Below, in pieces: positions 694-58,305 of a stretch of DNA of 64,000 nt; the first letter of the stretch is position 1, and the number at the start of each line of letters is the position of its first letter. A program made the translations under genes and the position numbers. The DNA is from Bdellovibrionota bacterium. Lineage in GTDB: Bacteria; Bdellovibrionota_C; UBA2361; CAKMMH01. The stretch is from NCBI GenBank assembly GCA_050952645.1, contig JBMNLI010000012.1:287588-351587 (forward strand), given 5' to 3'. The notes below the pieces were generated by a model that had not been told where the DNA came from, ran no database searches, and saw nothing but the letters and a program-made list of their open reading frames with translations.

Positions 694-908
694 TAGCAAT
701 GAGTTTAGTAGCTAGAAATGGGAAAAGAGTAGGAAAAGAATATAAAGAGAGTAGAAAAACAAAAACGGTAGTTCATTTCACGTGTTTAAGTGGGTTAGAA
801 AAAAATTACAGCTACACTTAAAGTTTAGGTTTTAAAGTAATTTATTTTATTTAAACACTTTTAAACGTGTAGAACTGTATTTATCAATAACTAGTTTTTA
901 CTAGTTTT

Positions 909-4811: not shown

Positions 4812-4907
4812 GTTTAAAAGCTTAAAATTAGCCTTTAAGATAATTATTAAGATAATTAGAGTTTGAAAAAATTAAGTTTGAAAAAAAACGTTAACAAAGG
4901 TTATATT

Positions 4908-7900
4908 ATGAAAAATTACTTTATAAATAAAAATTATAAATTAAGAGTAGTAGTAACTATATTTTTTATATTTTTCTTTATAGCATCTCCTTTATACGCA
5001 GAGTTTGATGATTTTAGTGATGCAGTGCCTAAAGGTGCAAGTGTAGAAAATTTAAATAAATACAATACTAATACTAATATTAATACTACTACTAATACTG
5101 CTACTACGAATATTAATGCTAATACAAACGTTAATAAGCCTACAAATTCTAATGTAAACGATGCTTCAAATACCTTTTCTAACACTAATAAACCTACTAG
5201 TGATACTACTAATACTTTAAACCAATCGGGTGCTAACAAGCCTACTACTACTACTAATAATAATAATAATAATAATAAGCCATCTCGTAAAATAACTAGA
5301 CAAGAAGCGATAGCCGAGATAAATAGTCAACTTAACAATGTAAAGCAAGCTACAATGCTACTAAATGTAATAGGAATAAATAATTATGGAAATTTTATAA
5401 ATCATATAGGCGGAGTGCAAAACATACTTTCAACCATAAATTCTTTTGGTGGAGTTAATAGTTTTGCTTCCGTTGTAAATAGTCTTCAAGGATTTAAAAA
5501 CTTTCAATCTTTAATAAACCAAGTAAATGGAATAAGCAACCTTGCGCAATTTATAAACGGCCCAAATATTGGTGGCGTTAGAAATTTTATATCTCTTATA
5601 AGGTCGCTAGGAGGAGGCGGAAATTTGCAATCACTTCTAGGAGATATTGGAGGGCTTGGAAGCTTAAATTCGCTTATAGGAAATCTCGGGGGTATTGGAA
5701 GCTTTCAATCGATACTTAGTGCTTTAGGTGGCTTTGGAAATTTTTCTTCGCTAATAAGTGGTATAGGCTTTGGAAATTTAGCTAACTTTATAAGTGGCAT
5801 TGGTGGTATTGAAAACCTTGCAAATTTTGCAGGGATAGTAACATCGCTATTCGGGGGATTTGGTAGTAATCTTTTTCAAAGTTTTTTAGCAAACTTAAAT
5901 TTACTTGGAAGTTTAGGAAATATCCCTAGTATTTCAAGTATATTGTCGCAATTTGGTTTTGCTAATCTTTTAGATTTTATGAACTGGGCTGAAAGATATC
6001 TAAGATTTTTCGGTATATCTTTAGGTTCTATAGCAAGTGATTGTGAAAATTCAAATAGCGTCTTGACTTGTGCGAGCCAAGCGATGGTCAACGGAACTAT
6101 GAACCTATTTGGAGCTGCTGGAGGAGAATATACTTGTAATGGTGGAGTTTGTAGCCGAAATAATACTATGAAGCAAGCTAGTAAATGCCAAGGTGGCTAC
6201 TGCCCTACTACGCAAAACTTTGATAATTTTGATAAGAATTTAAAATTTTTTCCTAAGGAGATTAGGCTAGACCCTAATTTGAAAAAAAAAACTAAATTAA
6301 CTAAAAGTAATGATATAGCGATTAATCAAAAAGATAATAAACGTGATGAAATTATGCAAGACATAGCTAGTCAGTTGCGTGGTTCTGAAAGGGAAGAAAC
6401 TTTTAAAGCGGTAAAAGAGCAAATAGATAAATATGTAGATACATCTGCTAAAGAAACTAGTTCAAAAGATAGAAAATTACCATTTGCTATAGGAAATGAA
6501 AAAGCATCTGAAATGCGAAGCAAAGAAGAAGCAATCGCTTTAGCTGGTGATTTTAAAATGTGCAATAAAAAAATTGCAAGCGACAGATTAGATATAAATA
6601 TGCTAACGGCTCCGCAGCTTAATTATAAAGAGAATGTTTCTTGTAAAGACGGCACAGGAATATATCTTTCCTCAGCAAAAAACGTATCTAAAGGCAGTTA
6701 TTTTGAACACCGTGCTTATAATCGATTGCAAGGGAGACTCTCAGATTTTATTGGCGACCCAGAAGGAATATTAACTGGTTGTTATGAAATACATAAGGTA
6801 AAACCTCAGTATTATAATATATTAAGACCCGTTGGAAGATGTAGAATGACATTTAACCTAAAAGGCACTAAAATAGGTGTTCCTTCAAAGTTTAAAGAGC
6901 AAATTTGGCTACCTTTTGTTGGTTGTGCCTTAGGTTGCAAAAAATGGACTATAATCTCTGAAAAAGTAGAATACTACTACCCTACTCATAAGATAACTTT
7001 AAGCCAGGACCCATTATATAGTAGATATTTAGAAAAGAACACGGCAGAGAAGATGCTTGCAAAATATAAAAATGCTGTAAAAACGGAGCTAGAAACGGCT
7101 ACATCTAGCAAAGAGCTATCTCAAACGCTTTTAGAAAGCGTATCAAAGTCTGAAAAAAGAGGCTCAGAGGCGAAATTTAAGGGAAAGAGTGATATGGAGA
7201 TACAAGCGACTAAGGGCGTGCCAGAAACTGCATTTTTAGGGCAAATTCAGCACGGTTATATGAGAATTTTTCCATTCGATGCTGCCGAAGAAAAAATGGC
7301 AAATAATGTGTGGAGAAATTCCTACATTGCTTCCTCTAAACAAGCACTTCCGCATGTTTCGGCAAATAAATCTTATTGGGGAACTGATTTTAGTGGAGAA
7401 AGCGATAAATTTTTTACTCCAAACCATACGAGTAAAGATAAAGAAAATTTACAGTTCTACTTAAATTATGCTGGAAATGAAAAACAACAAATATTACGAA
7501 ATAAGCATTTAGAGCATATAAATATTCCTTGGAATACAGTTAGAAGAGATGGACTTACAGGGGGGTCTTATATATATGTAACCGACCAAAAAACCGACCC
7601 AATATTACATGAAAAAGGAGCTCTTCCAGATGAAGAACTTAATCAATTAAATCAGCATAACACTCCTATCAGAAACAAGAATGCGTTTGGAGTTGGAAAT
7701 ATATCATCTTTAAATAATCTTACTCCGACGGGTAATAGCGATTATATAACACAAACGCTAATTCGTGGCTTTAATATGTTTTTAGCGGAGAAAAGCCCAA
7801 TAAAAACTTTAACTTTTGAGCACGAAGATAAGGCAAAGCCTTTATTAGGAACTGGTATGGGCGAGGTTGGGTTTTGCAAACCACTTGTAGGAACTGATGA

Positions 7901-8480
7901 TCCTCAAATGTTGCCTTATAAATATCTAAATCATGCAGTTGTAAAAACTATTGTAGGCGATACTTTTTACCAAACGACGCTTGCTCCTATAACGAAAAGA
8001 AATCCAATGATACGTGGCGAAAGGCAAACATTTAAGCTTAAGTATGATTTATTACATGCTCCAGTTTTAGAAGAGGATAATGGAGAAAAATATCCAAAAT
8101 CTTTTAATGAAGATTTCAATAAGGATGTTCAGAATATACTTAATAAAAAGCTAAAGAAAGACGAGTTGAATGTAGATGAAATAAAGGGAGACACTTGTTA
8201 TGCGTTATTTGAAGCGACTAATAATAATTTAGATTTTAATATGGTCAACACTCTTACTAATAAATATAAAAATGTCTCAACACTTGCTAACAAAGGTGAA
8301 ATAAGTTTTACATTATATACTTTATTTTCAGGGACTATCGCTTTCCCAGGAATGACGTGCCACACTTGGTATCACGGAGTTGGCGTTACGCCTAGGCCAC
8401 AAGCGGGACATTGTTATGATATGTTTGGTGGCTCAAAGGCTACTCCTAAAATTAGAAACGATGAGTTTCGTTTATTTTAA
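4908..8480 (+). CDS. very large secreted protein: Asn/Thr-rich low-complexity region, ~11-residue Gly-x-x-N/S-F-x-S-L-I repeats, Cys-rich segment, large C-terminal domain of unknown function
   Basis: Long ORF (tracked from 4863; likely start ATG at 4908 after AAAGG). Signal peptide (VVTIFFIFFFIASPLYA). The repeat array is visible in the translation (GGVNSFASVVNSLQGFKNFQSLINQVNGISNLAQFING...). Contains an (AAT)7 run encoding poly-Asn at ~5257-5277. Confidence 0.6.
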   Translation: MKNYFINKNYKLRVVVTIFFIFFFIASPLYAEFDDFSDAVPKGASVENLNKYNTNTNINTTTNTATTNINANTNVNKPTNSNVNDASNTFSNTNKPTSDTTNTLNQSGANKPTTTTNNNNNNNKPSRKITRQEAIAEINSQLNNVKQATMLLNVIGINNYGNFINHIGGVQNILSTINSFGGVNSFASVVNSLQGFKNFQSLINQVNGISNLAQFINGPNIGGVRNFISLIRSLGGGGNLQSLLGDIGGLGSLNSLIGNLGGIGSFQSILSALGGFGNFSSLISGIGFGNLANFISGIGGIENLANFAGIVTSLFGGFGSNLFQSFLANLNLLGSLGNIPSISSILSQFGFANLLDFMNWAERYLRFFGISLGSIASDCENSNSVLTCASQAMVNGTMNLFGAAGGEYTCNGGVCSRNNTMKQASKCQGGYCPTTQNFDNFDKNLKFFPKEIRLDPNLKKKTKLTKSNDIAINQKDNKRDEIMQDIASQLRGSEREETFKAVKEQIDKYVDTSAKETSSKDRKLPFAIGNEKASEMRSKEEAIALAGDFKMCNKKIASDRLDINMLTAPQLNYKENVSCKDGTGIYLSSAKNVSKGSYFEHRAYNRLQGRLSDFIGDPEGILTGCYEIHKVKPQYYNILRPVGRCRMTFNLKGTKIGVPSKFKEQIWLPFVGCALGCKKWTIISEKVEYYYPTHKITLSQDPLYSRYLEKNTAEKMLAKYKNAVKTELETATSSKELSQTLLESVSKSEKRGSEAKFKGKSDMEIQATKGVPETAFLGQIQHGYMRIFPFDAAEEKMANNVWRNSYIASSKQALPHVSANKSYWGTDFSGESDKFFTPNHTSKDKENLQFYLNYAGNEKQQILRNKHLEHINIPWNTVRRDGLTGGSYIYVTDQKTDPILHEKGALPDEELNQLNQHNTPIRNKNAFGVGNISSLNNLTPTGNSDYITQTLIRGFNMFLAEKSPIKTLTFEHEDKAKPLLGTGMGEVGFCKPLVGTDDPQMLPYKYLNHAVVKTIVGDTFYQTTLAPITKRNPMIRGERQTFKLKYDLLHAPVLEEDNGEKYPKSFNEDFNKDVQNILNKKLKKDELNVDEIKGDTCYALFEATNNNLDFNMVNTLTNKYKNVSTLANKGEISFTLYTLFSGTIAFPGMTCHTWYHGVGVTPRPQAGHCYDMFGGSKATPKIRNDEFRLF

Positions 8481-8520
8481 AGCTTTTTTTTTTAGATGTT
8501 TTAACTATAAAAGAAACTAA

Positions 8521-8608
8521 TTCTTCACGTTTTAAGGTGATTTTAAGCTCTTAAAGTTAGCAAAAGTTAGCATAGTCTAGTCTTAGGAAGCCTTAAAACG
8601 TGAAGAAC
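8521..8608. repeat. MITE-like element, copy 1 (88 bp) with perfect 17-19 bp terminal inverted repeats TTCTTCACGTTTTAAGG(TG)
   Basis: Left end ttcttcacgttttaaggtg and right end ccttaaaacgtgaagaac are exact reverse complements. Related ends recur at 12524, 21153, 23283, 44657/44757 and 53334. Confidence 0.7.
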
Positions 8609-8988
8609 TAAAAAAAAACTTAAGAAAAAGACAAACTTACCTTAAAGCCTAAACTTTCTCTATATTTACGTATACTATGTTTTTTAAGAGCTTAAAACTT
8701 TAGCTTTGAGGCTAGTGTTTATCTTTCTTTAAGTGAATACGTATTTACGTCCGTTATTTTAATAATTTATGCGAGTGTTTCGTAACTTTTTTAAATTATT
8801 TTGAGTAGGTTCCCTAAATTCTCATTAAATTTTATACGTAAGACTAGGGAAAATTTGGGTTTTAAGCTTAAAATCTTTTAAAACATGCAAAACCCGTTTT
8901 TTTTAGAAGCATTTAGCCTACTAATAAAGATTATATATATAGGAAATTAAAGGTTTTTTATGTTTTTTTTATGGTAGGAGTAGTAAAT

Positions 8989-9357: not shown

Positions 9358-11502
9358 ATGAAAGATATGGGAGGATATAATATTTTTAGTGGAAATAACT
9401 CACCTGAAACAAAAGAAAGAACAAAAGCAAGAGGTGAAGTAACAAAGGGTAATAAGAGAGAAGAACCGCTAAAAAATTTTTCCTTTAATAAAGGTAAAGA
9501 TGGTGAAACTATAGAATTTAACCCTACCGATTTTAAGAAAGTTCAACAAAGAGAAGATAATACTCAGAGAACCTTAGATTTAAACTCCCCTCACGATCCA
9601 AATGGAGCAAATACACCAGATCCAAATTCCTCTCCTGACCCCAACAACAGTACTAATCCTCAGATAAAATATGATATGTATGAGGGAAAATTTAATATGA
9701 GAGGGTTGCGTGAAGAATTTAAAGAAGCAGTAGCGAAATATAATCGTATATCAGATAGTGATATTGCTGATAAGAAAGAAGCTAGGCGAAAAATGGATAA
9801 AGCTGGGAAGCTTTATGATGCTGAGTTAGAAAAATCATTAGGGTCAGAAGGCAGACGTGGAATGAGCAATCGGGACATATTTGAAAGCTTAAATGAAGAA
9901 CAAAGAGCGGCATTAGATTATGGAACAATAGTACTCATTATAGATAGTAATTTAGAAGATAGTAAAATAAATTTAACTGAAAAAAAACCTACTAGAGCTT
10001 CAAATGTACCTGCAAAATATAAAGACCGTCTGCTTATTATAACTGGTTCTACAGGGAATATAGAAGTTAAAAAAGCTAAAATAGATCAAGGCGCAAGCTT
10101 GGGAGTTGTTTATCTAAACAAAACCAATGGTAATGATAAGAATAATAGTATCGAAATAGTAATAAGAAGTGGGCAGTTTATTCACGCCGTAATGGTAAAT
10201 GAAGGTGGTGTAAAATTTTGCTTTAATGGGACTCCTGAAGACACAAGCAAAAATCAGCCAGCTAACATAATAGTTCTTGATCACTCAATACTAAGGGGAG
10301 TTAAAAAAGCAACATCTTGTTGTGCAATAGGAACTACATTTGATGGTAGCGCATTAGGTGAGGGATTCGTTGGTTTAGCTAGAGCATATAATAATCGAAT
10401 CCCAATAATAGGAAGAGCTATGCAAGCGTATTATACGTTAACTGGAAATGAAAAAAAGAGTATTAAATTACAAGTATATGGATTATTAGGCAACACAATA
10501 TGGGATAAAACAACTGCAATTTGGCCTGAAGGTCAAACGATATTTGAGGAATTTACAAAAAGATTTCAAAAAGGTAAATATAATAAACGTTTTATAAGTC
10601 CATCGACTAAAGAAAATTATGAAGATTTAATTCGAGAACTATTAAAAGAGCTTCCTGAAGATAAAAAAACGATTAAAGGTTTAATGGAAGCTGTTCAAGA
10701 AAATGAAGATTTAAGTGATGATGAAAAAAGTTTTTTAATCCAAGCATTAAAAACAGTAGATACTGATATAAAAGAATATTATGCCAAAATGTGTCGTAAA
10801 CTTTTAAAATATTGTTCTTGGCCAATGATTTTTAAAAAACCTCCGCAACCATTAGATTTAACAGATGGGCTAGAAAGGCTTCAAAAAGATCCTTGCGTAG
10901 ATATGAAAAAATTAAATGTAGAAGATCTTGCAGATTATGGAATTAATGAGAGAAAATTCCTAAATAATGTCGACAAGGGACACGAGCATATTTATTTAAT
11001 AGTTGATGAAGATACTGGAAGAAGATTCGTAACGGTAGGACGACTTGATGGAAAATTAAATGTAGCAAACATAGTTGACCAAAGAGATCCAAAAAATGGA
11101 CGTTTCGCTACATTCCCAGAACTTTACTCAGACGACATTCGAGTATTTCAATTATTAAGAAAAATCACCACAACCCCTGAAGAGTTTGAAACTAGGAGAA
11201 AAGAATTAAAAATTAGCGATGATGATTTGAAGGAAGTTTTCAAATTTTTCAATCTTAATGAAAATAATCCTTGGGAAACTGATGGCAGAAGCTATATGGA
11301 AAATTATCAAATCTTTCAAGACAGACTTATCACTTGGTTTAATAGTAGGTCGGAGAGATATGGTAATCATGAAGACTTAGTCCAATATAAGAATCCTAAG
11401 ATCACTAAGGAGGTAGAAGTTGGAGGGTTTGTAAGTGAAATTAAAGAAAACAGACAGAACACGGATGCTTTAGAAGGGTTTCTTATAAAGCTCCCTGACT
11501 AA
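9358..11502 (+). CDS. hypothetical 714-aa protein (Pro/Asn-rich N-terminal region, no signal peptide)
   Basis: Long intact ORF. Alternative start at 9367 has better SD spacing. No recognisable domain. Slightly GC-richer than its surroundings. Confidence 0.45.
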   Translation: MKDMGGYNIFSGNNSPETKERTKARGEVTKGNKREEPLKNFSFNKGKDGETIEFNPTDFKKVQQREDNTQRTLDLNSPHDPNGANTPDPNSSPDPNNSTNPQIKYDMYEGKFNMRGLREEFKEAVAKYNRISDSDIADKKEARRKMDKAGKLYDAELEKSLGSEGRRGMSNRDIFESLNEEQRAALDYGTIVLIIDSNLEDSKINLTEKKPTRASNVPAKYKDRLLIITGSTGNIEVKKAKIDQGASLGVVYLNKTNGNDKNNSIEIVIRSGQFIHAVMVNEGGVKFCFNGTPEDTSKNQPANIIVLDHSILRGVKKATSCCAIGTTFDGSALGEGFVGLARAYNNRIPIIGRAMQAYYTLTGNEKKSIKLQVYGLLGNTIWDKTTAIWPEGQTIFEEFTKRFQKGKYNKRFISPSTKENYEDLIRELLKELPEDKKTIKGLMEAVQENEDLSDDEKSFLIQALKTVDTDIKEYYAKMCRKLLKYCSWPMIFKKPPQPLDLTDGLERLQKDPCVDMKKLNVEDLADYGINERKFLNNVDKGHEHIYLIVDEDTGRRFVTVGRLDGKLNVANIVDQRDPKNGRFATFPELYSDDIRVFQLLRKITTTPEEFETRRKELKISDDDLKEVFKFFNLNENNPWETDGRSYMENYQIFQDRLITWFNSRSERYGNHEDLVQYKNPKITKEVEVGGFVSEIKENRQNTDALEGFLIKLPD

Positions 11503-11580
11503 AATATAATATCAATATTTTATCAGAACAATCAGCTTTATTAAAAATTGCCTAAGCGTGTGAAAAATTTTTTTAAAGCC

Positions 11581-12477
11581 TTACTTAGCATTCAACCTAA
11601 CCACATTCTCCATAAGCGTTGCTATAGTCATAGGGCCTACGCCGTTTGGAACGGGGCTTATAAATACGTCTTTATTTTTAAAGCTTTCAAAGTCGATATC
11701 CCCTACTACTTTATTGTCGCTCGCTCTGTTTATTCCGACATCTATTAAAATAGCACCATCTTTTACATTGTCCGAGTTTATCAATTTTTCTTTGCCAACC
11801 GCTGAAACTATAATATCTTTATCCTTTACTTGCAAAGCTAAGTCCTTAGTTCTTGAATGCGAAATAGTAACCGTTGCATTTTGCCTTAAAAGCATAAACG
11901 AAAGAGGAAGCCCTACAAGCATAGAACGCCCAATAACTAGCGCATTTTTACCCGATAAATCTATCTTTTCAAAACTTTCTAACCCATCATGGCTATTGCC
12001 ATTAAGTGAAAGACTTATTAACTCCATAACCGCCTTTGGCGTGCAAGGATATACGCTCGGCTTGCCATTAAATAATTTGCTAGTATTAATCGGAGTTAAA
12101 CAATCCACATCCTTATTAGGCGAAATTAAAGATAGAAAATAGTTTTTATCAAAACCATTAGGAAGCGGAAGCTGAAGCAATATCCCCGTAATATTAGTAT
12201 CTAAATTTAATTTAAATATAACCTCTTCTAACTCTTTCTTAGAAATATCCTTGTCTAAAAAAATCGTCTCCGTTTCTATAAAACATTCCTTTGCTTTTTT
12301 CTCCTTGTTTGAAACGTAAATTTTAGACGCCTCATCGTCCCCAACTAATATAACAGCAAGCTTTGGAAGCTTTTCCCCATTAGCTATAAGCTTAGAAACC
12401 TTGCTCTTAACCGCTTCAAATTTTTTTTTAGCAAAATATGCACCATCTAAAATAATAGGAGTTCCCATAAAAATCAC
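11581..12477 (-). CDS. folD: bifunctional methylenetetrahydrofolate dehydrogenase/cyclohydrolase FolD
   Basis: Full-length similarity to FolD (LAVILVGDDEASKIYV ... ILLQLPLP ... NGVGPMTIATLMEN). True start may be the Met at 12468. Confidence 0.85.
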   Translation of the reverse strand: MIFMGTPIILDGAYFAKKKFEAVKSKVSKLIANGEKLPKLAVILVGDDEASKIYVSNKEKKAKECFIETETIFLDKDISKKELEEVIFKLNLDTNITGILLQLPLPNGFDKNYFLSLISPNKDVDCLTPINTSKLFNGKPSVYPCTPKAVMELISLSLNGNSHDGLESFEKIDLSGKNALVIGRSMLVGLPLSFMLLRQNATVTISHSRTKDLALQVKDKDIIVSAVGKEKLINSDNVKDGAILIDVGINRASDNKVVGDIDFESFKNKDVFISPVPNGVGPMTIATLMENVVRLNAK

Positions 12478-12523
12478 TCTCTCTTTCTTTAATCCTACTA
12501 AATCTTAAATTAAATTTTTCGGC

Positions 12524-12742
12524 TCTTCACCGTTTTAAGTGGATTAAAGACCTTAAAATTAGTATCACGCACCCCACAAAGCCTAAAAGAAAATTGACTT
12601 TAAAGAAATTTGCATAAAATAAATTACTTTAAATATAGTTGTAATTTTTCTTTAAACTATAGCTAGTTTTTTACAAAAGCCAATTTTCTTTTAAGCTAAC
12701 CTAAAAAACAATTTTTCTAACCCACCCAAAACATGAAGAACC
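12524..12742. repeat. MITE-like element, copy 2 (~219 bp, full-length, uninterrupted; contains the empty group II intron target site at 12696/12697)
   Basis: Ends resemble the TIR of copy 1. About 120 bp of internal sequence is near-identical to 21225-21338, and the 3' part matches 23237-23283. Confidence 0.65.
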
Positions 12743-12808
12743 AATTTCTCTTATATGCCTCAAAATATTTTTTTAAAAGCATCTTAACTTAAAACTGAGA
12801 AGCTCTCC

Positions 12809-18515: not shown

Positions 18516-20560
18516 TTATTCTTTACTAGCTTTATCTTTATTAGATTTATCTTCTTTAGCTTTATTATTTTCAAGTGCGTTTCTAGTATCATCTTTTATA
18601 TCATCATTTACATTATTTTTAGTATCATCTTTAGAATTATTTTTTAAATCATTTTTTTCGTCGTTAGAAGAAATTTTTTTACCATCTACGATTTCATCTA
18701 TTTCATCAGCATTAAGAGTTTCTTTTTCTAATACTCTTTTTGCTAGCTCTTCTAGTGTGTTTTTATTATCTAAAACTATTCTTCTTGTCGTATTATAACA
18801 CTCATCTATTATTCTTCTAACCTCAGCATCGATTTCTAGTTGTGTAGTTTCAGAATACTCTCTAGCTTTACCAAACTCTTTTCCTAAAAACACGTGTTCG
18901 TCTTTAGATGAATAATTTATAGGTCCTAACTTTTCACTCATTCCCCATTGACAAACCATTTTTCTTGCGATATTCGTGGCACTTTCAATATCAGAACTAG
19001 CACCAGTGTTAAAATGGTTAAATACTATTTCTTCGGCAGCTCGTCCTCCCATTAGCACTACAATCTTATCTACTAAATAATCTTTAGAATAAGTATGCCT
19101 ATCCGACTCAGGAAGCTGCTGCGTAACTCCTAGAGCCATACCACGGGGCACTATGGTTAATTTATGCACAGGATCTGCATTTTTTAGCTTTTTAGCCACT
19201 AGTGTATGCCCAGCTTCATGGTAAGCGGTAGTTTCTTTTTCTTCATCCGTAAGTATCAAAGAGCGTCTTTCAGCACCCATTAAAACTTTGTCTTTAGCAA
19301 ATTCAAAATCTGAATTTTCTACCTTTTCTTTATTTTGTCTAGCCGCATAAAGCGCTGCTTCATTTACTAAAATCTCTAAATCTGCACCTGAAAATCCAGG
19401 AGTGCCCCTAGCTATAATTTCTAAGTCTACATTATCTGCTAGAGGAGTTTTTCTAGTATGAACTTTTAATATCCCATGGCGTCCGTTAATATCTGGTCTA
19501 GGCACTACTACTTGTCTATCAAATCGTCCTGGGCGAAGAAGCGCAGGGTCTAGCACGTCTGGTCTATTAGTAGCAGCAATCAAGATTACCCCTTCATTAC
19601 TTTCAAAGCCGTCCATTTCAACTAAAAGTTGATTTAGAGTTTGCTCTCTCTCATCGTGTCCCCCACCCATACCTGCTCCACGATGGCGACCTACGGCATC
19701 TATTTCATCTATAAAAATTATGCAAGGAGCATTCTTTTTTCCTTGAATAAATAAATCCCTTACCCTTGAAGCTCCAACACCTACGAACATTTCAACGAAA
19801 TCTGAGCCTGAAATACTAAAAAAAGGAACGCCAGCCTCTCCTGCTATGGCTCTAGCTAAAAGCGTCTTTCCAGTCCCAGGGGAACCTACTAAAAGCACTC
19901 CCTTTGGAATTCTACCTCCTAATTTTGAAAATCTTTTTGGTTCTTTTAAAAATTCTATTATTTCTTCAAGCTCTGCTCTAGCTTCATCTATTCCAGCAAC
20001 GTCTTCAAACGTAACTTTATTTTGATTTTCATTTAAAAGCTTTGCCTTAGATTTTCCAAAACTCATTCCTTTTCCAGAGTTCATTGAAACTTGGCGCATA
20101 AAAAATACCCATATAGCTATGATTATTACTAAAGGAAGCAAGTTTATTAAAACTAAATAATACCAAGGCTCTTCTTTTTCTTCCTTAACCTCTATCTCAA
20201 CACCTTTTTTATTTAATTTATTTATAAGCTTTGGATCGTCTGGGGCGATAGTTGAAAACTGTTCAATAGTATCGAAATATGAGCCAGTTATTTTAGAACC
20301 AGATATTTTTACAGATTTTATATTGCCAGATTCTAATTTTTGATAAAAATTGTGAATAAGAAATTTCAGAACTCTTTTTTATGTCAGGATTCATCGGCAC
20401 CATATAGAGAAAAAATCATTATCGGCAAGGAAAACCCAAAATATTAAATTCTTTACTGTTTGGTTCACGGAAAAAACTCCTAATAAAAATAAAAAAACAC
20501 TAGTAAATATAATAAACTTAACTCTAGTTAAGAGCAATAAGCTAATAAAACTATTTACCT
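18516..20560 (-). CDS. ftsH: ATP-dependent zinc metalloprotease FtsH; intact from TM2 onward, N-terminal ~150 codons interrupted by frameshifts
   Basis: Walker A GSPGTGKT, second region of homology (SRH), and HEAGH zinc motif. Upstream, [20 protein letters not shown] is followed in the +1 frame by [12 protein letters not shown]...[22 protein letters not shown]1-like segment sits further upstream in a third frame. Confidence 0.8.
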
Positions 20561-20617: not shown

Positions 20618-21067
20618 TTAGAATTTTCCAGATGAACCAAACCCACCGTGTCCTCTTTCAGTTTCTCCGAGTGCCTCTAGGGAATCTTCTTCCTTAGCCG
20701 AAACTAAACAAGGAACTACTATGGCTTGAGCAATTTTTTCACCTTTTAATAGAGTTTGTGGTTCCCTCGCTTTCATTTGAAAGAACTATTTTTAGCTCTC
20801 CTCTATAACTAGCATCGATAACGCCAGCATGGGTATATATGCGTCCTTTTAGAAGCCATGCTAGACCTATCTTTAATAATCATTACGTAGCCTAGCGGTA
20901 TAGCAAAATGTAGTCCCGTGCTGACTAATGCTTGCGTCTTAGGTGCAATAGTTATCTCGTTAAATGCTCTTATATCAAAACCTGCATCACCTAAATTGAG
21001 GTATAACTAAGTCTATTCCACTTTCTTTTGCTTCTTTAGTTAAGAAAAATTTTAATTCTGCATTCAT
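20618..21067 (-). pseudogene. dut: dUTP pyrophosphatase (dut) with at least three frameshifts
   Basis: Minus-strand translation gives MNAELKFFLTKEAKESGIDLVIPQ, then NLGDAGFDIRAFNEITIAPKTQALVSTGLHFAIPLGYVMIIKDRSSMASKR, then GVIDASYRGELKIVLSNESEG, then GEKIAQAIVVPCLV...GETERGHGGFGSSGK. Each segment lies in a different frame, spanning 450 bp in total. Confidence 0.6.
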
Positions 21068-21078
21068 AATATCTCTCG

Positions 21079-21140
21079 CTTATAATATCTAGCTTATAAT
21101 ATTCTAGATTATAATATCTAGATTATAATATCTAGATTAT
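21079..21140. repeat. ~14-15 bp tandem repeat (tctagattataata) x4 immediately upstream of the dut start
   Basis: Sequence reads atatctagcttataatattctagattataatatctagattataatatctagattatataac. Confidence 0.5.
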
Positions 21141-21152
21141 ATAACAGTTATC

Positions 21153-21338
21153 GTTAACTAAATTCTTCACGTTTTAAGGTGTTTTTAAATCCTAAAAAAT
21201 TAGCATCATCCACCCACAGAAGCCCAAAAGAAAATTGACTTTAAATGAATTTGCATAAAATAAATTACTTTTAATATAGCTGTAATTTTTTTTTGAAACT
21301 ATAGCTAGTTTTATATAAAAGTCAATTTTCTTTTAAGC
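21153..21338. repeat. MITE-like element, copy 3, 5' part (interrupted by the group II intron)
   Basis: Starts with TIR ttcttcacgttttaaggtg. 21225-21338 is near-identical to 12583-12696. Ends ...aattttcttttaagc immediately before the intron's GTGTG. Confidence 0.65.
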
Positions 21339-23236
21339 GTGTGCCGGGCACGACATAGTTCTAGCGGGTGAAAGTCCCGTCACGGGTAGTTGTCACCAAG
21401 TGTAGTGATGCCACAAGCTCGAAGCAGTAATGTTAGAGTGAAGGAAGTGGCGGATCAAAACCAAGGAGCCTACGAACAGAAACCAGATACAAGGCTAAAT
21501 GGTGGGTGAGGTTGCGCTACAAACCGAAGCCCTAAAGACAAACGTAAAACCAAACGAGTAAATCTGGAGGTTGTCTGGTGAAAGAACTATGCCTTACCCC
21601 GGGAGGTCCAGATAAGCGTGCTATGCACGTGCGATATAAAGCTTATATCTGGAAGTCAGTTGATACCATAGTACTTGAGACACCACTCAAGGAAGGGTTG
21701 AACGTTAATATATTGTGAATCACTGTAAGCAAGGCTAGAAGAGTCCGAAATTGAAGATATGCCTAACAAACAGGAACGTAACCTGTGGGGGCAGAAGATA
21801 GAGGGGGTGTTTTCTAGTAGCTTTACAAACAGAGGGAGGAGCAACAGGTGGAATTGATTGAACTGATTATATCAGACAAAAATATAGATGAGGCTATAAA
21901 GGCTGTTAAGCGAAATAAAGGTGCATCTGGTGTAGATGATATGCCAGTAGATGAGCTTGAAGACTATTTTGCCGTTCACAGAGAAGAGATAAAATCTCAG
22001 ATACGTGAAGGGAATTATAAGCCGAGTCCAGTTAAGAGAGTGTATATACCTAAAGCTAATGGTAAGATGAGACCTTTAGGAATACCTACAGTAGTAGATA
22101 GGGTAATTCAACAAGCGGTAGCGCAAATACTAGCACGCGGATACGAAAAAGTATTTTAGTAATAGTAGCTATGGCTTTAGACCTAGAAGGAATTGCCATC
22201 TAGCAGTATATAGAACTCTTGAGTACTTGAAAAGAGGCTATGATTGGGTTATAGACCTAGACATAGAGAAATATTTTGATACTGTTAATCACGACAAAAT
22301 TAATTTTCGATAATCAGGGAACGCATCAAAGATGCGAAGACACTACGATTGATAAGACAGTTCTTAAGAGCTGGTATAATGGAAGATGGATTGTTTACTG
22401 TAAGTGAGAAAGGAGTTCCGCAAGGAGGTCCATTATCCCCAGTATTATCTAACATATACCTTGATAAGCTCGACAAGGAACTGGAAGCAAGAGGACTTAA
22501 GTTTGTTAGATATGCCGATGACTGTAATATATTTGTTAGAAGTGAAAAGGCTGCTAATAGAGTAATGAAGTCCGTTGCGAGTTGGTTGGAGCGTAAGCTA
22601 CGACTTAAAATTAATTCAAGTAAGAGTAAAATCTCTAGGCCGACGGAAAGCACTTTCTTAGGCTTTACCTACTGGAAGAGTGGGTATAAAACTTGGAAAT
22701 GTAAACCTGCTGAAGATCGCAAACGAAAACTCTATGATAAAACTAGAGAAATTCTTTGTAGACGGAAGGCAATGGCACGAACGTTAGGTTCGACATTTCA
22801 ACAGCTAAGCTGGTTAATTAAAGGTTGGATAAACTATTATAAGATAGGAACTCTTAAGACTTTTATAGATAAATATGGTCAATGGCTTAGACACAAAGTG
22901 AGGGTTATAATACTTAAACAGTGGAAATTGCCGAGACGAATCTATCTAAATCTTAAGAAATTGAACCGAATGCTTGGTTGCAATTTTAGAAATGAAGAAA
23001 TCTATAAGGTTGCTAACAGCAGACTCGGCTGGTATAGACGCAGTTCGTGGTACGTAGTGAATTATGCATTAAGCCCTAAAATATTGGGGCGTAAAACAAA
23101 GGAACGAATTGGTTTAATCGACCCTTTGACGTATTACCTGAGTATTACTTGATATTATATTAATGGAGCGCCGTATACGAGACCCGTACGTACGGTGCGA
23201 CGGGAGGGAGAGGGTATAGCCCTCGCTCTACCCTAT
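21339..23236 (+). mobile_element. bacterial group II intron (~1.9 kb), En-minus type, inserted in MITE-like repeat copy 3
   Basis: 5' GTGTGCC... boundary. Domain V/VI-like hairpins near the 3' end (gagcgccgtatacgagacccgtacgtacggtgcgac; gggtatagccctcgctctaccctat with a bulged A). The encoded protein is RT plus maturase. The flanking sequence reconstitutes the uninterrupted repeat seen at 12524-12742. Confidence 0.75.
21848..23152 (+). pseudogene. group II intron-encoded reverse transcriptase/maturase, interrupted by two frameshifts (~22150 and ~22315); no endonuclease domain
   Basis: RT motifs 0-2 lie in ORF 21848..22159 (PLGIPTVVDRVIQQAV). RT3-4 sit in another frame (SYGFRPRRNCHLAV ... DLDIEKYFDTVNHDKI). 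RT5-7 and domain X lie in ORF 22349..23152 (GVPQGGPLSPVLSNIYL ... YADDCNIFV). Confidence 0.7.
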
Positions 23237-23283
23237 TAACTCCCAAAAATAATTTTTCTAACCCACCTAAAACGTAAAGAACC
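23237..23283. repeat. MITE-like element, copy 3, 3' part (after the intron)
   Basis: taactcccaaaaataatttttctaacccacctaaaacgtaaagaac matches 12697-12742. Confidence 0.6.
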
Positions 23284-23309
23284 TTTAACTATACTATTTA
23301 ACTATATCA

Positions 23310-25390
23310 TTAAAGCAAAGCTTTTCTAGAGAGCCTTATTTTACCGAATCTATCGACCTCTAAAACTTTCACTTCAATCTCATCGCCAATTTGCATCTCG
23401 TCTTCTACTCGCCTAATTTTCCTATTAGCGATCTCTGAAATATGTAAAAGCCCATCGGTGCCAGGTAGAATTTCAACGAACGCCCCAAAGTCTGCTATTC
23501 TTTTCACTATACCTTTGTATACTTTACCAACCTCGGCTTCAGCTACAATGCTTTCTACTACCGTTAGGGCTGAATTTATATCATCTTGATTAACTGCCGT
23601 AATTGCTACTATGCTATCATCTGAAATATCTATCTTAACATTATAAGACTCTTGAATAGACCTAATGGTTTTTCCGCCTTGCCCTATAATATCTCTTATC
23701 TTATCAGGATTAATTTTTAGCGTTACTATTTTAGGAGCGTAGCTACTAATCTCATCTTTAGGTTTACTTATAACCTCGTTCATTTTAGAAAGGATAAACA
23801 TTCTTCCTTCGTAAGCTTGTGCTAAGGCTTTTTCTAGAATTTCTTTATCTAGTCCTTTTATTTTAATATCCATTTGAAGTGCAGTTACGCCTTTAGCAGT
23901 TCCGCAAACTTTAAAGTCCATATCTCCTAAGTGATCCTCATCGCCGAGAATATCCGTTAGAACTACGAAATCATCACCTCTTTTCATTAGTCCCATTGCT
24001 ACGCCTGCTGCTGGTGCTGTGATAGGAACGCCTGCGTCCATTAACGCTAAACTAGAACCGCACACGGTCGCCATGGAACTAGAACCGTTGCTTTCAGTGA
24101 TTTCTGAAACTATTCTTATTACGTAAGGAAACTCTTCTTCAGGTGGCAAAATAGCGCTTACAGCACGTTCTGCTAGAGCACCGTGCCCAATTTCACGTCT
24201 CCCTGGGCCCCTTACAGGCTTAGTTTCACCTACTGAAAACGGTGGAAAATTATAGTGTAAAATAAATTTCTTTTTTGCATCATCTTCCATTAAATTATCG
24301 ATTCTTTGTGCTTCGCTTTCAGCTCCTAAAGTGGTCGTAACTATAGCTTGAGTTTCCCCACGAGTAAAAAGTGAAGAACCGTGCGTTCTAGGTAGAACTC
24401 CAATCTCTATAGAGATAGGTCTTACCTCGTTAAATGCACGTCCATCTATTCTTTTTCCTTTATCGAAAGCAAACCCTCTAACGATTTGATAATTTAAATC
24501 TTCAAATATTCTATCTATTTGAACTTTAATGTCGCTTGCGTTTTCATCATCTTCTTTAACGAACTCTTCTACTAGTTTTTCTTTCGCTAATTTTACGGCT
24601 TTTGCTCTTTCTAATTTTTCTTTTACTTGAACTGCGTTTTTAATATCTTCAGAAATAAATTTTTTTACATCGTCAAACAATTTTTCATCGTATCTAGTAT
24701 GCTCAAAAACTATTTTTTCTTTTCCTGCTTGTTTAATTAAATCTTCTTGAAGCTCGATAAGTATTTTTAATTCATTATGAGCATATATAAGTGCATCTAG
24801 CACCTCACTTTCAGGCACTTCTTTAGATTCTCCTTCTACCATTACTATTGCATCTTTAGAACCAGCAACGATATAATTTAAATCTGCATTTTCTCTTTCA
24901 GTTGGACTTGGATTTAATCTTTAGTTTGCCGTCTATCCTACATACTCTAACTGCTGCAATTGGTCCATCAAAGGGTATCTCTGAGATTGATAAAGCTGCT
25001 GATGCACCGCACAAAGCTAGAACGTCTGTATCGTGTTCGCCCGTCTGCGCTCATAACGGTCGCAATAACTTGCACTTCTCTATTAAATCCATCTGGGAAA
25101 AGCGGTCTACAAGGTCTATCTATAAGTCTTGAAGTTAGCGTTTCAGCATCGCTAAGTTTTCCTTCTCTTTTAAGAAATCCTCCAGGAATTTTTCCTGCTG
25201 CATAAGTTTTTTCTACATAATCTATGGTAAGAGGAAAAAAATCTCCCTCTTTTTCTTCTCCTAGACAAGCCGTAACGAGCACCACTGAGTCGTAATATCT
25301 TACGAGCACTGCTCCTGCTGCTTGTTTAGCTATTCTTCCTGTCTCTATACTAAAATTACCACCATGAAAGTCTTTCTGTACTATAAACAT
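23310..25390 (-). CDS. pnp: polynucleotide phosphorylase (PNPase) with two apparent +1 frameshifts (~24900 and ~25040)
   Basis: N-terminal 140-aa ORF is a PNPase RNase-PH domain. The C-terminal 510-aa ORF carries the second PH domain, KH and S1 domains. The joining segment translates correctly ([52 protein letters not shown]) only after removing one G from GGG and one A from AAA. Confidence 0.8.
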
Positions 25391-39214: not shown

Positions 39215-39411
39215 ACTTAAACCGTAATCAATTTAAAAAAAACATACTACTAGAATAGTATAAAATAATTTATAATTTTGACAAGATTTAATATTATACA
39301 AGTGGTATAAGTGGGCCCTTTAGATAAAATTTTTAAAATCATTGACATAATTTAAAAATTTCTCTATTCTACTATTTTATATCGTTAAATTGTTTGGAAA
39401 ATTTTTTTTAT

Positions 39412-39485
39412 GGGCCAGTAGCTCAGCTGGTTAGAGTGCGTGCCTGATAAGCACGAGGTCGGAAGTTCGATTCTTCCCTGGCCCA
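39412..39485 (+). tRNA. tRNA-Ile (anticodon GAU)
   Basis: Cloverleaf: acceptor gggccag/ctggccc, D-arm gctcagctggttagagt, anticodon loop cuGAUaa, T-arm ggttcgattcc. No encoded CCA. Confidence 0.85.
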
Positions 39486-39679
39486 AACAACCAACCAAAC
39501 AACCAACAAAAAAAAAGAACAAACAAAATTAAACTAAAACAAAGTAGTTGGTATGATTTGTTTAATGCTTAAAATTAGATAATTAGTATTGAAAATATTT
39601 GTTTTATATACTAACATCTTAAAAGTTGTTGTTGTTTCAAAAAATTTATAAATTTATAATTTTGAAATTTGTCTTTTAG

Positions 39680-39752
39680 GGGGGTATAGCTCAGTTGGTA
39701 GAGCGTCGGCTTTGCAAGCCGAATGTCATGGGTTCGAATCCCTTTACCTCCA
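39680..39752 (+). tRNA. tRNA-Ala (anticodon UGC) with the G3:U70 identity pair
   Basis: Acceptor gggggta/tacctcc with the G3-U70 wobble. Anticodon loop tTGCaa. T-loop ttcgaat. One mismatch in the T-stem. Confidence 0.8.
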
Positions 39753-44377: not shown

Positions 44378-44397
44378 AAAATTTTTTTTCAAAAATC

Positions 44398-44637
44398 TTA
44401 TTGTTTTTTAGTATAAAGCGCCCTTAGTGCATTAGCTTCTAAAGACATTATGGCTTCCTTGCTAGTCCCTAAAATCTTAGCAACCTCTTTAACCGTTTTT
44501 GGTGGTTCACCATTTAAACCAAATCGTAATGAAAGCACAGTTTTCCACTCGATATCAAAATCTGATAAAATATTTTTCACAGCTTTTAATATCGCTTCAT
44601 CGTTTAATGTTGTTTTATCTTCTTTGTCTTTATCCAC
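44398..44637 (-). CDS. stand-alone sigma-70 region-4 (HTH) domain protein, 79 aa
   Basis: VLSLRFGLNGEPPKTVKEVAKILGTSKEAIMSLEANALRAL is a canonical sigma region-4.2 HTH. Non-ATG (GTG) start with no obvious SD. An in-frame stop lies 33 nt upstream inside the adjacent MITE copy. Confidence 0.5.
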   Translation of the reverse strand: MDKDKEDKTTLNDEAILKAVKNILSDFDIEWKTVLSLRFGLNGEPPKTVKEVAKILGTSKEAIMSLEANALRALYTKKQ

Positions 44638-44656
44638 AGTATTTAATAATAATAGT

Positions 44657-44757
44657 TCTTTAACGTTTTAAGGTGGGTTTAAGACCTTAAAAATTAGTAT
44701 CACTCACCTACGAACCCAAAAAACAATTTTTCTAACTCACCTTGAACGTCAAAGAAC
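44657..44757. repeat. MITE-like element, copy 4 (101 bp, internally deleted version)
   Basis: Left end ttctttaacgttttaaggtgg. Internal sequence shared with copy 2 (tttaagaccttaaaaattagtatcac; aaaaaacaatttttctaac). Right end caccttgaacgtcaaagaac. Confidence 0.65.
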
Positions 44758-44823
44758 CATAATAATTACATTAATACTTAGGATTATAGCAGATATTATA
44801 TATTTAAAAAGTTATAATTAAAG

Positions 44824-53234: not shown

Positions 53235-53333
53235 TTTTTTACTCCTTTCTAGCTACTTTTTGCCAAGCAACTAACTAATTAGTTTAATAAATTTTATGTA
53301 ATTATTCAAATGTAATTTGTAATATTTAATGCT

Positions 53334-53410
53334 TCTTTACGTTTCAAGGTGATTATAATAATCGCTTTTTTTGTTAGCTTAAAATCTCTTTTAAACGTTA
53401 AAACCTCAAG
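53334..53410. repeat. MITE-like element, copy 5 (degenerate; left TIR ttctttacgtttcaaggtg recognisable)
   Basis: Left end matches the TIR family. Right end only partially matches (aaacgttaaaacc). Confidence 0.4.
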
Positions 53411-58217: not shown

Positions 58218-58305
58218 GGAGTTCTTTCACAACTGATTGTATAAATAAATTATATATAAAATTTTAAATATGAACTAAATATGAAATTTGTTGTGAAAGA
58301 ACTCC
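58218..58305. promoter_or_regulatory. 16-bp perfect inverted repeat (ggagttctttcacaac / gttgtgaaagaactcc) bracketing an AT-rich, -10-like 56-bp spacer upstream of the acidic-protein gene
   Basis: Arms at 58218-58233 and 58290-58305. The spacer contains tataaat/tatatat. The RBS AAGGAG lies at ~58352. Confidence 0.5.

Follow-up and report, generated by a model that had tools for sequence, protein, structure and literature searches.

Short intergenic elements with ISL3-type ends in a Bdellovibrionota genome and their probable role as a homing site of a group IIC intron

The stretch of Bdellovibrionota DNA analyzed here (64 kb, hereafter the window) contains six copies of a family of short intergenic repeats, two of them full-length and four of them short derivatives. 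We interpret the family as small non-autonomous transposons, i.e., elements with terminal inverted repeats (MITEs), that have ISL3-type ends, are bordered by 8-bp target duplications and provide a group IIC intron with its homing site; we assign to this reading a probability of roughly 0.75. The window has a GC content of ca. 30% and a high density of housekeeping genes (folD, ftsH, pnp, Mrp antiporter, ftsK and others), between which the repeats are located.

An earlier note on this DNA, made from the letters alone, listed at least five copies. Each of the five was recovered exactly where it had been placed or a few bases away, and a sixth (copy F) was found close to the left end of the window. 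A search of the window with the 19-nt end motif TTCTTYACGTTTYAAGGTG, allowing up to 3 mismatches, retrieved seven occurrences (0.10 expected), a number reached in none of 100 shuffled sequences. A profile built from the ends retrieved 11 ends at E ≤ 0.008, the next match having E ≥ 1; the 12th match, with E = 1.4, is the right end of copy E, which remains recognizable at ca. 53405 and is degenerate, as the note had it. Chance occurrence of the motif, which the note had named as a way for the family to fail, is excluded by the motif count and the end profile.

The terminal inverted repeats are ca. 26 bp long, rather than ca. 19 bp as first estimated, and have the consensus GGTTCTTCACGTTTTAGGTGGGTTAG, which is common to all copies. 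The ends start with GG(C/T)TCTTCACG; the left end of copy B reads GGCTCTTC / GGCTCTTCAC, and most other ends start with GGTTCTT. When the intron is removed from copy C (leaving 225 bp), an alignment with copy B reveals 85% identity along the entire length of ca. 222 bp, and not merely the ca. 120 bp of shared internal sequence that had been proposed. Copies A, D, E and F, which range from 75 to 107 bp, are distinct internal-deletion or replacement derivatives of the full-length form. Copy A, the one originally flagged, has a perfect terminal inverted repeat of 17-18 bp (the 17-bp repeat described before is indeed there, at 8521-8537 / 8592-8608) and an interior unrelated to that of the long copies. 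At 75-225 bp, the elements are non-coding and contain no transposase ORF.

All six copies are intergenic, which agrees with the original description. Copy A starts 38 bp past the stop of a 1205-aa ORF, copy D has a 639-aa gene on one side and a small sigma70_r4-like ORF on the other (both of them minus-strand), and copy E, which is seen in two independent assemblies, lies between divergent genes. The stop codon of pnp is located 27 bp beyond the right duplication of copy C. Coordinates of all copies and of the features associated with them are listed in Table 1.

Table 1. Positions of the repeat copies, their flanking duplications and associated features in the window.
Feature	Position	Strand	Description
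Copy F (new)	770-876	-	ca. 107 bp, internal deletion, both ends and part of the interior kept; neighbors are a CorC/CBS-like ORF and a YkuD ORF, which converge on it with their 3′ ends
Copy A (flagged)	8519-8609	+	91-bp short form
Copy B, left duplication	12513-12520		AATTTTTC; match with right one 7/8
Copy B	12521-12742	+	222 bp, full-length; neighbors are a sulfatase-family gene and folD, both minus-strand
Copy B, inner repeat (whole)	12581-12696		two arms, next two lines
Copy B, inner repeat, first arm	12581-12601	-	AAAGTCAATTTTCTTTTAGGC
Copy B, inner repeat, second arm	12676-12696	+	AAAGCCAATTTTCTTTTAAGC
Promoter-like site in copy B	12656-12683	-	TTGGCT-16-TATAGT, directed at folD
Copy B, right duplication	12743-12750		AATTTCTC
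Copy C, left duplication	21153-21160		GTTAACTA; match with right one 7/8
Copy C, left part	21161-21338	+	178 bp, 5′ exon of the intron
Copy C, inner repeat, first arm	21222-21242		
Copy C, inner repeat, second arm	21318-21338		
Promoter-like site in copy C	21325-21298	-	TTGACT-16-TATAGT, directed at dut
Group II intron	21339-23236	+	1898 bp, GTGTG...AT; Rfam D1-D4 and D5-D6 matches
Copy C, right part	23237-23283	+	47 bp, 3′ exon of the intron
Copy C, right duplication	23284-23291		TTTAACTA
Copy D, left duplication	44646-44653		ATAATAAT; match with right one 8/8
Copy D	44654-44758	+	105 bp, internal deletion
Copy D, right duplication	44759-44766		ATAATAAT
Copy E	53331-53405	+	75 bp, degenerate; good left end, weak right end (E = 1.4)

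Several genes next to the copies have features of their own. The 1205-aa ORF (4863-8480) contains Asn/Thr-rich low-complexity repeats, especially at 5048-5280, and has no Pfam or NCBIfam match; family matches are likewise missing for several other large ORFs of the window (714, 639, 521, 416 and 394 aa). The sigma70_r4-like ORF (ca. 44387-44638, minus strand) is homologous to an 84-aa sigma70_r4-domain gene of a relative (contig L119) and starts ca. 16 bp downstream of copy D, so that the element replaces most of the region upstream of this ORF. A tandem array with a 14/29-bp unit (TCTAGATTATAATA...) separates copy C from dut and adjoins the dut start on its upstream side (21074-21145).

The non-autonomous transposon reading, which the earlier note had already put forward, is backed by 8-bp duplications located exactly at the tips of copies B, C and D. 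Each element was taken to run from the first G of GGTTCTTC to the last C of GAAGAACC. In a boundary-shift scan of the three copies, the summed score was maximal (22/24) exactly at the repeat tips, and shifting either boundary by 1 to 4 bases lowered it to 5-11/24, the in-register diagonal excepted. For 8-mers flanking arbitrary segments of the same size in this window, the chance of a match of at least 7/8 is 0.0012-0.0015 per site. The scan rejects the TA or TAA duplication suggested previously, and the start of copy C, formerly placed at 21153, moves to 21161, the intervening eight bases being its left target duplication. Since the duplication of copy C encloses the intron, the element was inserted first and the intron later. 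No convincing duplication was seen in the flanks of copies A, E and F; those of copy A, beside an A9 run, match at 5/8 positions only. Indel errors in the window could blur homopolymer-rich flanks such as these.

Which transposase family may have produced such elements? The note had recognized no named IS family in the ends. Judged from the letters of the ends, GGCTCTTC (the left end of copy B) or GGTTCTTC, together with the 8-bp duplication, the elements appear to belong with the ISL3 family, for which this evidence is supportive rather than decisive. Inverted repeats of ISL3 elements are ca. 15-39 bp long and start with GG(C)TCTT, and their target duplications are 8 bp; the GG(C/T)TCTTC tips and the repeat length of the present elements, as well as the duplications of copies B, C and D, fit this description. 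The published ISL3 element ISArsp7 has the repeats GGCTCTTCGCGGTTGGTGGTGAAT and GGCTCTTCGCGTTTCGTGGTGAAT and the 8-bp duplication CCTTTGCC (PMC6305408), and an ISL3 origin has been assigned to a MITE of Microcystis aeruginosa that has GGCTCTTCG ends and is flanked by 8-nt duplications (PMC11448079). We also read ISL3 ends directly for IS1251, IS1476 and a Lactiplantibacillus (L. pentosus) element. IS1251 in plasmid NZ_CP092559 has the ends GGCTCTTTGTCAAATGATGTTGGT and GGCTCTATACTTTTTGATGTTGGT (GGCTCTTTG...) and the duplication ATAATTTT; the L. pentosus element has an end that starts with GGGTCT and the 8-bp duplication TAAAATCT. The present elements have in common with ISArsp7, IS1251 and IS1476 the terminal GG(C/G)TCTT, repeats of ca. 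24-26 bp, a GTG/GGTG block near positions 17-21 and AT-rich 8-bp duplications, but the three insertion sequences are 1.4-1.6 kb long and encode a transposase, whereas the elements of the window are at most 225 bp long and non-coding.

The same features could be sought in another family. IS6/IS26 elements likewise generate 8-bp duplications, their ends start with GGTTCT in IS1216 and IS257, and these six bases, with which most of our copies begin, are the start of the IS1216 end GGTTCTGTTGCAAAG (contig L098). Past base 6, however, there is no match. In ungapped comparison over 24 positions, the element ends match ISArsp7, the best-matching published ISL3 end, at only 13-17 positions and IS6-family ends at 6-10, a background score that is reached by 36% of the 24-mers of the window; moreover, the left end of copy B bears the ISL3 hallmark. 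Elements of the IS6 family transpose by forming cointegrates and do not typically give rise to MITEs. An origin from IS6/IS26 instead of ISL3 is thus very unlikely and was rejected on the end comparison. The similarity to ISL3 ends is itself moderate: 11 of the 127,952 24-mers of the window reach 15/24 with the right repeat of ISArsp7, and while six of the 11 are element ends, the other five are unrelated sequences with the same score. Since all ends share one ancestor, the similarity amounts to about one independent observation.

A cognate transposase with matching ends was sought, as the note had advised, and no ISL3 transposase gene was found in the 64-kb window by tblastn with the IS1251 transposase or by a Pfam scan of 20 ORFs. 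No full-length IS with these ends was retrieved from GTDB representatives, JGI metagenome contigs or IMG/VR. Among GTDB representatives, the exact 19-mer gave 17 single matches in unrelated taxa, about the number expected by chance, with neither a second end nor interior homology. The degenerate end motif gave 73 single matches in the JGI metagenome contigs and 4 in IMG/VR, both at chance level; the JGI result is weak evidence, since this collection evidently contains no samples that hold the organism (contig L113, which matches the pattern, was not returned). The Microcystis MITE is the closest counterpart, being non-autonomous, with the same type of repeat start and with 8-nt direct repeats. 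It differs in having matching ISL3 copies in the same genome, where no transposase was found in our 64 kb, in its host phylum and in the sequence past the tip, and no association with an intron was reported for it (PMC11448079). We propose that an ISL3-family DDE transposase, encoded elsewhere in the genome or now lost, would have bound both terminal repeats and mobilized the element in trans, inserting it into AT-rich intergenic DNA with duplication of 8 bp of the target.

The distribution of the family among related genomes was analyzed next to its internal divergence. The pnp product is 84-86% identical to proteins of MAGs, and one near-identical cluster member is labelled Bdellovibrionota. 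Contigs of relatives (L001-L006) are syntenic with the ca. 11.5-37 kb part of the window. No copy is present in ca. 70 kb of nonredundant sequence from five related genomes (74-86% amino acid identity in two flanking proteins), the sites orthologous to those of copies B, C, D and E included. At the site of copy B, the sulfatase gene and folD are separated by 14 bp in L003 vs. 331 bp in the window; at that of copy C, the pnp-dut spacer is 107 bp in L003 vs. 117 bp in the window once the element and intron are subtracted; at that of copy D, the spacer is 122 bp in L119 vs. ca. 181 bp in the window, the 105-bp element included; and at that of copy E, it is 116 bp in L118 vs. 220 bp in the window. 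The orthologous intergenic DNA of the relatives is too diverged for base-by-base alignment, and the comparison thus concerns spacer lengths and gives no clean empty site. Assemblies of the same species carry the copies examined. Since the copies are missing in relatives, the family probably expanded in this lineage, and its spread would postdate the split from the relatives compared here.

The suggestion that the element is active or recently active is not supported. Copies B and C have diverged to 85% identity, two of the three duplications carry a mismatch and four of the six copies are deletion derivatives, two of them with no recognizable duplication, all of which speaks against very recent activity of the copies in the window. 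The family is a genuine and lineage-specific one, and apparently it is ageing.

Comparison with other assemblies also bears on sequence quality. The window is matched at 100% identity by Logan contigs of SRR31061295, contigs of ERR10905742 differ from it almost only by indels, and a comparison with L007 over 2265 nt shows two indels but no substitution. Frames are broken or contain in-frame stops in pnp (23310-25390), dut (20621-21070), ftsH (18516-20468) and the intron protein gene (21848-23152). The pnp and intron proteins are intact in other assemblies (P0001 and P0148, respectively), and the broken frames are most likely assembly indel errors rather than pseudogenes.

Long hairpins with paired outer stems are predicted for copies A, B, C and D, and their folding far surpasses that of shuffled controls. 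As RNA, copies A and D yielded -25.8 to -35.6 kcal/mol (z -3.6 to -6.8), the lowest value belonging to copy A (-35.6 kcal/mol, z -6.8) and z being -3.6 to -4.5 for copy D; as DNA, copies B and C yielded -26.9 and -32.4 kcal/mol (z -4.5 and -6.4). Such folding, together with the intergenic position of every copy and the location of several of them right past gene ends, would also be expected of REP/BIME-type or other palindromic units whose spread or maintenance depends not on DDE transposition but, for example, on a RAYT Y1 transposase or on selection for a function as terminator or mRNA-stabilizing hairpin. This alternative, which the note had listed as a refuting one, fits poorly. It does not account for the 8-bp direct repeats at the tips of three copies, for 26-bp ends that resemble those of DDE-family insertion sequences or for the lack of the copies at the same intergenic sites in relatives, and the sizes of 75-222 bp, deletion derivatives included, stand against the short (20-40 bp) imperfect palindromes typical of such units. 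Furthermore, copies E and F fold no better than shuffled sequences, a permissive Rfam search with copy B returned noise only and no family match, no terminator-like site was scored within or beside copies B or C, and no transposase-type Pfam domain was present among the 20 ORFs scanned. We consider a REP/BIME-type origin highly improbable. The absence of the element from orthologous intergenic sites is a second line of support for a MITE.

In addition to the terminal repeats, the full-length copies contain an inner 17-bp inverted repeat, AAAAGAAAATTGACTTT ... AAAGTCAATTTTCTTTT, and it is next to this repeat that copy C is interrupted by the group II intron. The intron protein, frame-broken in the window, has RVT_1 and GIIM domains only (i.e., those of an RT-maturase) and no endonuclease domain. 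The intact version, P0148, is 433 aa long and is 100% identical over the fragment. Its best PDB matches are group IIC RTs (7uim, 6ar1 and 5hhj/5hhl), with E-values of 5e-107 for 7uim, 2e-99 for GsI-IIC and 3e-90 for 5hhj and much higher ones for the non-IIC proteins LtrA (2e-47) and 6me0 (1.5e-37), which are IIA or IIB. By its sequence, then, the intron protein is of the group IIC type. A candidate EBS1, GCTTA, and a possible EBS2, AAAGAA, were discerned in the intron by eye only.

Three contigs encode P0148 (L112, L113 and L114), and they represent three independent insertions. L112 is the same locus as copy C. The other two are metagenome contigs with different copies. L114 contains another copy of the element, 91% identical to copy B, with the intron at the same position. 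L113 contains a further copy; there the intron occupies the other arm of the inner repeat and so has the opposite orientation to the element. At each of the three junctions the sequence is AAAG(T/C)CAATTTTCTTTTRRGC^, 4 nt after the 3′ arm of the inner 17-bp repeat, and both orientations are used, as L113 and L114 demonstrate. In the window, AAAG(T/C)CAATTTTCTTTTRRGC occurs four times (0.02 expected), exactly in both arms of copies B and C, and one of the four sites is occupied; both target motifs of copy B are free. In L114, a MITE copy forms the 5′ exon, but the sequence 3′ of the intron (2069-2085, ATGCAAAAAAGCTAAAG) is not MITE-like; either the contig is chimeric or that copy has lost its right part by deletion.

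The presence of the same intron at the same motif in three different copies could be turned around, with the repeats being by-products of the intron, i.e., exon sequence carried or copied in retromobility, and the family being spread by the intron. Only one of the six copies in the window contains an intron, however, and four have no target motif at all; the 8-bp duplications border the element on its outside and, in copy C, enclose the intron; and hundreds of bases of flanking exon are not duplicated by retrohoming. This explanation is extremely improbable. We instead favor the order in which the transposon comes first and its inner hairpin is used afterwards. The group IIC intron would take the inner hairpin as a structured DNA target and insert 4 nt 3′ of the stem, and, since the inner repeat is symmetrical, each full-length copy offers an intron site on both strands.

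Group IIC introns are known to be located behind terminator motifs "or other inverted repeats" (PMC1702495). Homing into other mobile elements is well known among introns, one example being the group II intron RmInt1, which has its natural homing site in ISRm2011-2 (PMC1802570). The present case is similar to the latter, but here the intron is hosted by a non-coding MITE in place of a transposase gene, terminator or attC site, and the symmetrical inner repeat gives a site on both strands. In the literature searched, no MITE was described as the homing target of a group II intron; the nearest report concerns Thiomargarita, where the nesting is reversed and a group I intron harbors a MITE (PMC4853749).

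Taken one step further, the two elements may form a two-level parasitic system, in which symmetrical hairpins spread by the MITE provide dispersed, harmless and two-stranded homing sites for the intron, whose copy number and survival would depend on the MITE; we give this extension an even chance. A nesting of one mobile element in another is tidy but fairly ordinary and opens no new kind of biology, and an ISL3-derived MITE of the same description has been published before, in Microcystis. It is, nonetheless, a clear natural case of a group IIC intron on the hairpin of another mobile element, on both strands, and the element could serve as a small, well-defined substrate for studies of IIC target recognition. 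The family adds an ISL3-type MITE to a phylum where none seems to have been described and accounts for ca. 1 kb of repeated intergenic DNA per 64 kb in this uncultured lineage. The repeats also explain breaks of short-read contigs there; L115, for example, ends inside copy B.

Both full-length copies contain a promoter-like site (Table 1), and one may conjecture, as a weaker addition to the above, that an outward promoter of these copies maintains the expression of folD and dut where the element has entered an operon. Such sites are no more numerous in these AT-rich stretches than chance would give, and since both promoter and terminator counts are at chance level, the idea is a conjecture. 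Among known elements, the Correia elements of Neisseria and RUP/BOX/ERIC-type MITEs are, like the present family, small, intergenic, hairpin-forming and multi-copy and exist in full-length and internally deleted forms. Those elements are about 100-160 bp long and are co-transcribed with neighboring genes. Correia elements have 26-bp inverted repeats, as does the family described here, but duplicate TA and have unrelated ends; their effects on transcripts are documented, whereas here such effects are only conjectured. Promoters of Correia elements are mentioned in the Thiomargarita report (PMC4853749).

Three other features of the window were recorded. An isolated 88-bp palindrome with perfect 16-bp ends (GGAGTTCTTTCACAAC) is located at 58218-58305, between ftsK and a 169-aa ORF. 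It has GTTCTTTCAC in common with the MITE tip, but the family profile gives no match to it and no duplication flanks it; a different small element and a regulatory palindrome are both conceivable. At 39411-39752, genes for tRNA-Ile(GAT) and tRNA-Ala(TGC) adjoin in an arrangement like that of an rRNA spacer, and there is no rRNA gene anywhere in the window. Finally, at ca. 11500-12800, where gene orientation turns from plus to minus and where copy B is located, GC skew flips its sign (positive before ca. 12 kb and negative after). This switch could reflect a replication terminus or origin region or simply the change of coding strand.
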